Below are positions 7,580-8,654 of a stretch of 9,541 nt of DNA, one piece after another. A program made the translations under genes and the position numbers. Source of the stretch: a virus. Lineage: Duplodnaviria; Heunggongvirae; Uroviricota; Caudoviricetes. The stretch lies in the IMG/VR virus record IMGVR_UViG_2548876863_000015; one strand, given 5' to 3'. A model generated the notes under the pieces. That model saw only the letters and a program-made list of their open reading frames with translations, did no database searches and had not been told where the DNA came from. Positions within the stretch are counted from its first letter, which is position 1. Each line of letters begins with the position of its first letter.

Positions 7580-7741
7580 ATGAGCGAATACATCACAGAC
7601 CCTATTGATGTACTCACGGAAATCATGAACGACAAGCAGCAGTCGACCGAAATACGGTTACAGGCCGCCGCTGTTCTGATGCCATATTTTCACGAAACAC
7701 TAAACCCGTGCTTCCAGGAGGAGGAAGAAGATGATCTGTAA
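7580..7741 (+). CDS. Hypothetical 53-aa acidic protein overlapping the capsid-homolog start
   Basis: ATG at 7580 (GAGG 9 nt upstream); stop TAA at 7739-7741, overlapping the next gene by 11 nt. MSEYITDPIDVLTEIMNDKQQSTEIRLQAAAVLMPYFHETLNPCFQEEEEDDL: predicted helical with an acidic tail. Below the ORF-track cutoff. Confidence 0.4.
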   Translation: MSEYITDPIDVLTEIMNDKQQSTEIRLQAAAVLMPYFHETLNPCFQEEEEDDL

Positions 7742-8654
7742 AAACATGAAAGGCGTGTCAGCAGTTCGCGCCGCCAGCGTGCTGGCATCGTGTAAATTTA
7801 GCCATGCTGACGCTATAGAGATGACGAAAAGAAATGATCCGGCAGTATCGAAATTTCTTGAAAAATCCATCGTCAACAGAATGACTACGGATAACATGCC
7901 GTCGCTGGTGGCAGAGCCGATAGTAAGAGAGCTTGGCGAGTATATTTTTTCGCAGTCTGTACCAGGCAAGCTAATCAGCAGCGCGCTTAATCTTCCGTTT
8001 GGCGCAAAATTGCATTCAATATCAGGCAAGGGTAGTAAATGGCTTAAAGAAGCCGAAGAAATCCCTGTCAAAGAGGGAGAAGTAAACGAAAGTGCGCTAA
8101 AATTGTGCAAACTTGGCGCTATTGTGATGCTGAATAACGAGCTAATCAAATTTAGCACCCCTGGTACAAATTCAGCGATCAGAGACTTGATCACATCGGA
8201 ATCGGTGAAAGAAATAGATAAAAAATTTCTTTCCAGTGATCAGGAGGTGGCTGGCGTATCCCCTGAGGGCGTGCTTAATGGTGCTGATGAGGCCGAAAAC
8301 TTCATAGAGATTTTCAAAAAGCACATAGCGAACGGTAACACGCTTTCCACGTCGTCGCTAATATTGCCCGTAGAAAACGCCTTACAGCTTACTGATGCTG
8401 AGTTCTGGCAGATAGAGCTTTTGAGAATACCGGTAATTGTGAGCGAACAGGCGGATCGCATGATGCTGATAGACGCTCAAAAGCTGATTATTAACGTTGA
8501 AGCCACGGTTATAACCCCAACTGATGAGGCGGTAATAAAAACCGAATCAGGGGCGGTTAGCCTTTTCCAGAATGACGCTACAGCGTTCAGGGCAATCACC
8601 TATTGCGGATGGCAAAAACTCGATAAGGCCGTCACCGTTCTGGCGAAAAGCTGA
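7731..8654 (+). CDS. HK97-fold major capsid protein homolog (307 aa, no delta/scaffold domain)
   Basis: Strong SD (AGGAGGAGG) before the ATG at 7731. Segments ...SGKGSKWLKEAEEIPVKEGEVNESALKLCKLGAIVMLNNELIKFSTPGTNSAIRDLITSESVKEIDKKFLSSD... and C-terminal ...SLFQNDATAFRAITYCGWQKLDKAVTVL follow the conserved HK97-family pattern (...wv-Eg--kpes--tf--vtl-pkklaaivpvSnElldds...l---eD-aflnG ... lp-Af-vl). Pattern match by eye, not verified. Confidence 0.65.
   Translation: MICKNMKGVSAVRAASVLASCKFSHADAIEMTKRNDPAVSKFLEKSIVNRMTTDNMPSLVAEPIVRELGEYIFSQSVPGKLISSALNLPFGAKLHSISGKGSKWLKEAEEIPVKEGEVNESALKLCKLGAIVMLNNELIKFSTPGTNSAIRDLITSESVKEIDKKFLSSDQEVAGVSPEGVLNGADEAENFIEIFKKHIANGNTLSTSSLILPVENALQLTDAEFWQIELLRIPVIVSEQADRMMLIDAQKLIINVEATVITPTDEAVIKTESGAVSLFQNDATAFRAITYCGWQKLDKAVTVLAKS

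Follow-up and report, generated by a model that had tools for sequence, protein, structure and literature searches.

We analysed a 9,541-nt stretch of DNA (IMG/VR virus record IMGVR_UViG_2548876863_000015; hereafter the window), focusing on three consecutive genes in its right-hand part, which encode a small terminase (TerS), a 53-aa protein and a 307-aa capsid homolog. The window is 100% identical to Escherichia coli O157:H7 strain 7.1_Anguil and is a complete ~9.3-kb phage satellite of the phage-inducible chromosomal island (PICI) type, from Shiga-toxin-producing E. coli (STEC). Coordinates 6954–8654 are the helper-exploitation cassette of the island, with these features:

6954–7025, no strand: cosN-like non-coding element, by nucleotide match to HNH-cos lambdoid phages
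7036–7309, plus strand: six AAAGTTAC repeats (exact copies), candidate cosB-like sites
7080–7568, plus strand: TerS, 162 aa (PF03592, phrog_641)
7580–7741, plus strand: 53-aa mini-TerS (phrog_641 positions 89–125, hhalign)
7731–8654, plus strand: 307-aa capsid homolog (PF05065, AlphaFold2 and Foldseek)

A sequence-only reading of this DNA had singled out the last two open reading frames (ORFs) as an overlapping pair, consisting of a small acidic helical protein and an HK97-like capsid protein without a delta or scaffold domain, next to a TerS-like gene. All of these genes were recovered here. Both ORFs of the pair are annotated in RefSeq, and they overlap by 11 nt.

The 307-aa protein is named 'phage major capsid protein' in RefSeq (WP_000562896.1), and its Shine-Dalgarno sequence, before position 7731, is AGGAGGAGG. 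It passed the Pfam family PF05065 (Phage_capsid; 28.4 bits, cutoff 24.2), and scored just under the cutoff of the stricter equivalog TIGR01554 (26.3, cutoff 27.5). The PHROG major head families that it matched have profiles of 626–752 positions, and only the C-terminal parts of these were covered. The AlphaFold2 model had a predicted local distance difference test (pLDDT) value of 67 and was built on a shallow alignment of 16 homologs, from a word-indexed protein search that yielded 6 and then 16. Foldseek searches with the model gave 194 matches in PDB and 173 in BFVD (E ≤ 1e-3). Among the matches listed, the top ones were all HK97-fold capsids or encapsulins, with TM-scores of about 0.4–0.5, and they included the SaPIbov5/Ccm procapsid 7rwz and SaPI1/80alpha capsids. 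The E-loop region of the model, residues 88–121, had low confidence. The HK97 fold proposed by the sequence-only reading is thus borne out by the model. Sequence kinship to Ccm or to the phi12 capsid protein was not detected, and a PDB profile search (E ≤ 1) retrieved only the Bxb1 and 80alpha capsid proteins, and no 7rwz chain.

By BLASTP, residues 7–296 of the island protein aligned to residues 291–625 of a 645-aa fusion protein of the Stx1a phage Stx1_14040 (25% identity, E 1e-19). On this alignment, the 307-aa protein corresponds to the capsid portion of a protease::(scaffold)::capsid fusion; its loops are shortened and the protease/scaffold part is absent, in line with the missing scaffold domain of the sequence-only reading. 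A tblastn search against phage genomes hit 112 records. The E. coli matches were Stx1a-, Stx2c- and Stx2a-converting phages and O157:H7 PPompW prophages; they covered 93% of the query at 23–24% identity and lay in a gene annotated 'prohead protease'. An exhaustive HMMER search found 488 relatives. The close family comprised about a dozen cluster representatives of 310–330 aa, and outside them were capsids of 330–460 aa and many fusions of 600–740 aa. The nearest outgroups, non-satellite relatives, were protease::major capsid protein (MCP) fusions of 600–740 aa.

The short form of the capsid protein (307–322 aa) was found in E. coli, Serratia, Klebsiella and Arsenophonus, at 38–53% identity, a breadth based on protein searches and seven genomic context look-ups. 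Scanning genome contigs with the capsid alignment found nothing, and the same scan of viral contigs returned E. coli copies only (93–100%). In comparisons of the window cassette with two other cassette copies (about 96–97% DNA identity), the ratio of nonsynonymous to synonymous polymorphism (pN/pS) was 0.17–0.18 for the capsid homolog, 0.25–0.30 for TerS and 0.18–0.21 for the 53-aa ORF. All three are real genes under purifying selection.

The island TerS matched PF03592 (E 2.7e-10) and, over its full length, phrog_641 (E 3.7e-43). It shared 46% identity with the TerS of the Stx1a, Stx2c and PPompW phages, unevenly distributed over the protein: 72% in the hairpin, 55% in the helix-turn-helix (HTH), 39% in the tail and 17% in the linker. 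A longer, 209-aa TerS starting at a GTG codon (an extension over window positions 6939–7079) was rejected, because its first 47 codons would cross a conserved non-coding cos-like element; the RefSeq start is the ATG at 7080.

A blastn comparison of the window with the phage HNH-TerS region detected this element as a non-coding match at 6954–7021. Over 57 nt it is 81% identical to the sequence between the HNH and TerS genes of the Stx1a phage. Salmonella phage FSL SP-016, whose head genes are arranged in the same way, matches at 93% over 42 nt. The element follows the pattern G-run ... CGATCGCCCTGGACACCGCCCCCC.TCTCA..C.TAGAAAA. It is kept at ≥93% in 93 phage records, and can be made out in the islands of Arsenophonus and Serratia as well, there too upstream of terS. 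Phage Lys8385Vzw was deposited as a sequence that ends with ...GACACCGCCCCCCCT and begins with CTCACGCAGAGAAAAAATTCC, so that its termini lie in the middle of the element, which suggests a cos cleavage site within it. The shared element 6954–7025 probably contains the cosN cleavage site, and the virion termini of the island are predicted within it, near CCGCCCCCC(G/C)T|CTCA.

Downstream of this element, island and phage have different repeats. The sequence AAAGTTAC has six exact copies in 274 bp of the island (7036–7309), compared with 0.35 expected in the whole window. Two copies are upstream of terS and four are in the region coding for the TerS linker, where they encode KKVTKKVTEKVT. The repeats are kept in two other E. 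coli islands (L010 and L011) and are absent from the phage. The phage counterpart is five copies of TGTTAAC between the shared element and the phage terS, and none of the TGTTAAC copies of the window is near the island terS. We consider the AAAGTTAC repeats candidate cosB-like binding sites of TerS. The pattern appears to be that of a shared cosN with a private cosB, and a complete satellite TerS in the redirecting role. A shared cosN with a private cosB is known for EcCICFT073 and lambda, where the adaptor Rpp does the redirecting (PMC6739421).

The 53-aa ORF, a hypothetical protein in RefSeq (WP_000006076.1), is preceded by the Shine-Dalgarno sequence GAGG before position 7580. Its product belongs to a conserved family of 50–56 aa and is strongly acidic (isoelectric point 4.05; 13 D/E and 2 K/R; six of the last 13 residues acidic), with the tail QEEEEDDL. 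The AlphaFold2 model (pLDDT 75) had helices at residues 8–16 and 23–40 and a disordered tail. Acidity and helices were therefore as first proposed by the sequence-only reading. Its further suggestion of a scaffold-like protein, similar to CpmB, found no such backing: there was no scaffold match in Pfam, PHROG or NCBIfam, and the PDB profile search gave only a TerS. Foldseek with the 53-aa model gave no significant match; the top one was NV1 TerS (E about 3), which we did not count as evidence alone.

Profile methods placed the 53-aa protein within TerS. It matched phrog_641 at positions 89–125 (E 3.5e-7), the same family that fits the island TerS end to end. A 13-member profile of the 53-aa family aligned to the TerS alignment by hhalign with 97.6% probability (E 4.5e-12), at island TerS residues 86–131, while control comparisons gave 0.2% for the helper large terminase (TerL) and 1.2% for the protease::scaffold::MCP fusion. 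By tblastn, matches were found within TerS genes of Burkholderia, Acinetobacter, Salmonella, Bordetella and Stenotrophomonas phages, for example at TerS residues about 73–119 of 145 in Bcep176 and 94–126 of 164 in FSL SP-016. The common hairpin motif is DP..(L/F)...IMN(D/N)......R..AA..L.P(Y/F).H. The only PDB sequence match of note was the NV1 small terminase 7joq, residues 81–101. BLASTP of the 53-aa ORF against the island and phage TerS found nothing, and the kinship is visible by profile methods only. In the related PaP3 TerS, the alpha4-alpha5 hairpin of the oligomerisation core comprises residues 64–105 (PMC7672466).

Judged by these profile matches, the 53-aa protein is a free-standing homolog, or paralog, of the TerS oligomerisation hairpin; we call it mini-TerS. 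It cannot be counted as a complete TerS (Terminase_2), as it has the hairpin segment only, without HTH and basic tail. After the hairpin, TerS proteins have a basic tail (GKKE..KK..AAKKAANRF), whereas the 53-aa protein has its acidic one. The ORF accompanies terS in the E. coli window, in L010 and L011, in the islands of Arsenophonus (L002) and Serratia (L003 and L004), and in a metagenome island (L017). Islands without terS, in Klebsiella (L005 and L006) and S. marcescens (L014), are also without the 53-aa ORF, yet they keep the capsid gene. The functional partner of mini-TerS is more likely a terminase than the capsid protein, because of the hairpin homology and the co-variation with terS. 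We found no description of a TerS-hairpin mini-protein in the literature searched.

The phage Stx1_14040 has the gene order DNase(HNH)-TerS-TerL-645-aa protein-portal, and the cassette looks like a cut-down version of the cos-TerS-TerL-protease::MCP block of HNH-cos lambdoid prophages. Such phages, of the Stx1a/Stx2c/PPompW type and resident in the same strains, are the candidate helpers, as far as gene order and sequence similarity indicate. Among 5426 complete E. coli genomes, 220 had the TerS/mini-TerS/capsid cassette, which was intact in every case. Those listed were largely STEC serotypes (O157:H7, O103:H2, O111:H8, O121). The helper-type module, TerS-TerL-fusion protein, occurred in 1255 of the 5426 genomes, with a median of two copies. 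At least three genomes (CP101310.1, CP159875.1 and CP074835.1) have both the island and the helper-type module.

Related islands differ in their backbones. L010 and L011, at the tRNA-Pro / yejM-yejO site in E. coli, have an identical six-gene right-hand cassette (96–97% DNA identity), with a different integrase and a RepA-family helicase replacing the P4 primase. The cassette on these backbones shows modular exchange between islands and is a portable module. In Arsenophonus nasoniae (CP123498.1, L002, positions 1999–10948), an int-alpA-primase-TerS-mini-TerS-capsid island is located inside a prophage, between head-completion and tail genes. Helper-embedded satellites of this kind have been described (10.1101/2022.07.18.500453). 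At the fis-dusB locus of Klebsiella aerogenes (L005 and L006) and Serratia marcescens (L014), capsid relatives of 38–40% identity occur with an AAA_25 helicase, without terS and mini-TerS. They adjoin an unannotated protein of 765–797 aa without a Pfam match.

On the source chromosome, the neighbours of the island are cspD/yljB on one side and clpS/clpA on the other, and flank annotation showed no phage genes there. All substantial ORFs of the window are on the plus strand. Outside the cassette, its features are:

96–168 (left) and 9394–9466 (right), no strand: flanking direct repeat, att-like (73 nt, 74% identity, 9298 nt apart)
185–1408, plus strand: left-end tyrosine integrase, adjoining cspD/yljB (PF00589 and PF13356)
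1405–2178, plus strand: 257-aa ORF of low GC content (ORF list)
2270–2494, plus strand: AlpA-family regulator (PF05930, E 3.4e-16)
Between the AlpA and primase genes, plus strand: several small ORFs (ORF list)
4115–5863, plus strand: P4-family primase/replicase (D5_N, DUF5906, TIGR01613 above cutoff)
5871–6047: iteron-like repeats 3' of the primase gene (repeats D12 and D16)
6214–6459, plus strand: 81-aa ORF (RefSeq; phrog_1231 match)
6590–6784, plus strand: 64-aa ORF (RefSeq)
6788–6949, plus strand: 53-aa predicted coiled-coil ORF (RefSeq)

The three small ORFs at 6214–6949 move with the packaging cassette onto islands with another integrase and replicase. For the 64-aa and 53-aa coiled-coil ORFs (6590–6949), pN/pS was 0.0–0.14, and homologs of both also occur in a TerS-less Klebsiella island. 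The iteron-like direct repeats (TAAAAnCCCTCTACCCC; GGATnGGTAGAnGGC...CCTCTACCC) lie directly 3' of the primase gene, the reported position of PICI replication origins. The 257-aa ORF (31–35% GC), between int and alpA, is in the slot of PICI accessory or defence cargo; it had no Pfam, NCBIfam or PADLOC match. Around 900 nt after the 307-aa ORF are free of genes. This island tail (8655–9400) is made of repeats: a palindrome, CCCGATATGG..CCATATCGGG, at 8669–8696 and 8787–8814, and an 88-nt repeat at 8695–8782 and 9232–9319 (95% identical). Pieces of the tail were found at 1730 places in 1106 E. coli genomes, without an Rfam match. Rfam, tRNA and PADLOC searches of the window found nothing.

Apart from TerS and the capsid homolog, no window ORF matched a head-morphogenesis family in Pfam, PHROG or NCBIfam, and neither these scans nor the flank annotation showed a portal, a protease or TerL. 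The island boundary and the lack of further head genes, on which the sequence-only reading had relied, thus agree with the chromosomal flanks and the 73-nt direct repeat. The assignment to the PICIs is based on int, alpA, a P4-type primase, terS and a capsid gene in the same orientation, on the att-like repeats and on the cspD-clpS site. In terms of the SatelliteFinder core set for Gram-negative PICIs, the island has a terminal integrase, flanking att-like repeats and a length of ~9.3 kb, where the size criterion applied was about 10–20 kb. It also has AlpA, a primase-replicase with a putative downstream origin (the iteron-like repeats), and terS with a capsid gene between chromosomal flanks, with no other structural family matched. 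Other classes were rejected. A capsid-forming PICI (cf-PICI) would have portal, protease, head-tail connectors, HNH and TerL, none of which is in the window or flanks. A P4-like satellite would have Psu, Delta, Sid and Ash/epsilon besides the alpha primase, AlpA and int; among the ORFs scanned, none matched Psu, Delta or Sid in Pfam and PHROGs, and the P4-like traits of the island are the P4-family primase, AlpA and an Icd-like gene. An Rpp homolog was not seen in Pfam and PDB profile searches, and the Rpp-type class was set aside.

We propose a cos-type PICI cassette that acts on both the terminase and the capsid of HNH-cos Stx-type phages, a model that we consider moderately probable as a whole. 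The island TerS would bind the island-specific AAAGTTAC repeats and bring the helper TerL and HNH to the common cosN-like site, so that island concatemers are cut and packaged in helper-built heads. Mini-TerS may have the terminase as its target; the likeliest modes are insertion into TerS rings or capping of them, and otherwise binding of the basic tail or TerL. Its action might bias packaging away from the helper, as a second shot similar to Ppi. The 307-aa subunit, which lacks the protease/scaffold half, could co-assemble with the helper capsid protein and perturb shell assembly, with a Ccm-like size reduction as the leading possibility. Underlying the model are the observed folds, homologies, synteny, selection, shared non-coding element and co-residence with the helper-type module. 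A bolder version, to which we give only a limited chance, regards mini-TerS as a new class of satellite weapon that caps or enters helper TerS rings or binds TerL. Together with the private-cosB TerS and the scaffold-less capsid subunit, it would accomplish a three-part hijack of Stx-carrying HNH-cos lambdoid phages.

Several points weigh against the model. Five island units amount to 46.5 kb and fill a helper head of 44–50 kb, so that size redirection is not required. Among the capsid homologs of Gram-negative PICIs, a knockout exists only for c1499 of EcCICFT073; its loss left interference and transfer unaffected, and that island uses full-size heads (PMC6092414). On the terminase side, the mini-TerS hairpin differs from those of the island and helper TerS, with a blank BLASTP, so co-oligomerisation is not assured, and the structural match of the 53-aa model to TerS (E about 3) was not significant alone. 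Since the hairpins of island and helper TerS are 72% identical, a mini-TerS that poisons the helper TerS might do the same to that of the island. The cosN assignment comes from the deposited termini of a single record, which is flagged circular.

The dispensable c1499 and the fit of five 9.3-kb units to helper genomes (44–50 kb by record length) would both be expected if the capsid homolog were a captured helper late gene without a role in size, with multimers packaged in full-size heads and the gene kept for a modest benefit such as low-level interference or helper compatibility. In Gram-negative PICIs, no other late gene is captured as often as the capsid gene (10.1101/2022.07.18.500453). 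However, the gene is under strong purifying selection (pN/pS 0.17–0.18) and intact in 220 of 220 genomes, the protease/scaffold half is cleanly removed, and the short 307–322 aa form is kept at 38–53% identity over four genera. In addition, PmCI172, which has a capsid homolog, makes small capsids (PMC6092414). We find this explanation rather unlikely. Lower still is our estimate for a 307-aa protein that is mainly an anti-helper poison, entering helper procapsids and aborting their assembly or maturation. The protein lacks an N-terminal protease/scaffold part, which in the helper comes in cis with each subunit; classical PICIs cause strong interference with helper phages, and the TerS-less relatives retain the capsid gene, which suggests a role independent of an own terminase. 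Yet a pure assembly poison would harm an island that needs helper heads for its transfer, and no PADLOC defence family was matched.

The scaffold pair of the sequence-only reading, in which the 53-aa protein would serve the 307-aa homolog as an internal scaffold, like CpmB, or as a chaperone, now seems very improbable. Adjacency and the 11-nt overlap suggest translational coupling, and the small protein is helical and acidic with a conserved acidic tail, but the Shine-Dalgarno region of the capsid gene encodes part of that tail. The homology is to the TerS hairpin, with no likeness to the helper scaffold/MCP fusion; neither CpmB nor another scaffold was found in the PDB profile search, and the ORF is missing from those TerS-less islands that retain the capsid gene. 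The alternative origin raised by the sequence-only reading, a decayed cf-PICI that has lost portal, protease, connectors and TerL, hardly deserves credence. Although terS and a capsid gene are two cf-PICI components and cf-PICIs are common in the same strains, the ORF list, Pfam and PHROG revealed no fragments of other head genes, and the cassette genes are under purifying selection, with the same layout across genera. The order terS-then-capsid is that of phages and not that of Proteobacterial cf-PICIs, where capsid-protease-portal comes first and hnh-terS-terL last. The nearest non-satellite relatives are the 600–740 aa protease::MCP fusions, and published capsid and TerS trees split PICI from cfPICI almost perfectly; it is by those trees that the cf-PICI capsid is set apart here.

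A lone capsid gene beside terS is a common, catalogued feature of PICIs and was already known. The sequence-only reading had considered it unusual for an enterobacterial island, which does not hold: major-capsid genes are listed among the core components of Proteobacterial PICIs, and 21 of 29 reference Gram-negative PICIs have one (10.1101/2022.07.18.500453). New here are the candidate helper class, the tracing of the capsid homolog to the capsid part of a fusion, the probable shared cosN with private repeats, and the 53-aa ORF as a paralog of the TerS hairpin. No functional study of this type of Gram-negative PICI capsid homolog was found in the literature searched. PmCI172 has terS and a capsid homolog and uses small heads, and its genetic manipulation was not possible (PMC6092414, PMC6893505). 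EcCICFT073 and PmCI172 resemble our island in having an int-alpA-pri backbone followed by a helper-exploitation region that has one major-capsid homolog but lacks portal and TerL, and PmCI172 also in having its own terS alongside. In EcCICFT073, by contrast, the capsid gene is paired with a head-decoration gene, and it is Rpp, not a TerS of its own, that is used, where the present island has both TerS and mini-TerS. The capsid gene of the EcCICFT073-like 11capE is reported as lambda E-type, whereas the one here is of the PF05065/HK97 type, from a protease::MCP fusion. The helpers proposed here are HNH-cos phages, and not lambda or phi80.

The comparison with Ccm, made by the sequence-only reading and proposed in 2018–2019 for c1499 of EcCICFT073 and the PmCI172 capsid homolog (PMC6092414, PMC6893505), is reasonable. 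Like our island, the Staphylococcus aureus pathogenicity island (SaPI) SaPIbov5 is a satellite of HNH-dependent cos phages, with a cos site like that of the helper and one capsid homolog of the HK97 fold. The identity between satellite and helper capsid is also similar: 23% between Ccm and the phi12 capsid protein (PMC6893505), and about 25% between the 307-aa protein and the capsid domain of the co-resident phages. Both are distant paralogs of a helper capsid protein on a cos-type satellite, with the fold in common and no detectable homology to the Ccm sequence itself. SaPIbov5 differs in its host phylum, and in our island the helper capsid is fused to a protease, with the satellite copy being the capsid half alone. 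Size redirection by Ccm is known in SaPIbov5 and is a hypothesis for the capsid homolog here. The pac-type SaPIs, with TerS_S and Ppi ('two-shot'), likewise combine an own TerS for an own site with a small protein that may act on the terminase (PMC6739421). Ppi is not known as a TerS fragment, in contrast to the TerS-hairpin paralog of this island, and those SaPIs package by headful, whereas the packaging of the island appears to be of the cos type. With the Rpp islands, the E. coli cos PICIs, our island shares the common cosN, a private cosB-like site and a satellite protein that would redirect the helper terminase; the redirecting protein is a TerS-binding adaptor there and a complete TerS here.

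The island is a clean test system, with identifiable candidate helpers in the same strains, a capsid protein that equals the capsid half of a helper fusion, and only three genes and a mapped cos-like site. Mini-TerS could represent a simple and widespread way to interfere with terminase. If the three-part hijack is true, this common island of STEC would influence how much Stx1a and Stx2c phage is made and how far it spreads. An effect of any kind on the production of Stx phages would be medically relevant, because the island is found in 220 of 5426 complete E. coli genomes, of which many belong to STEC serotypes.

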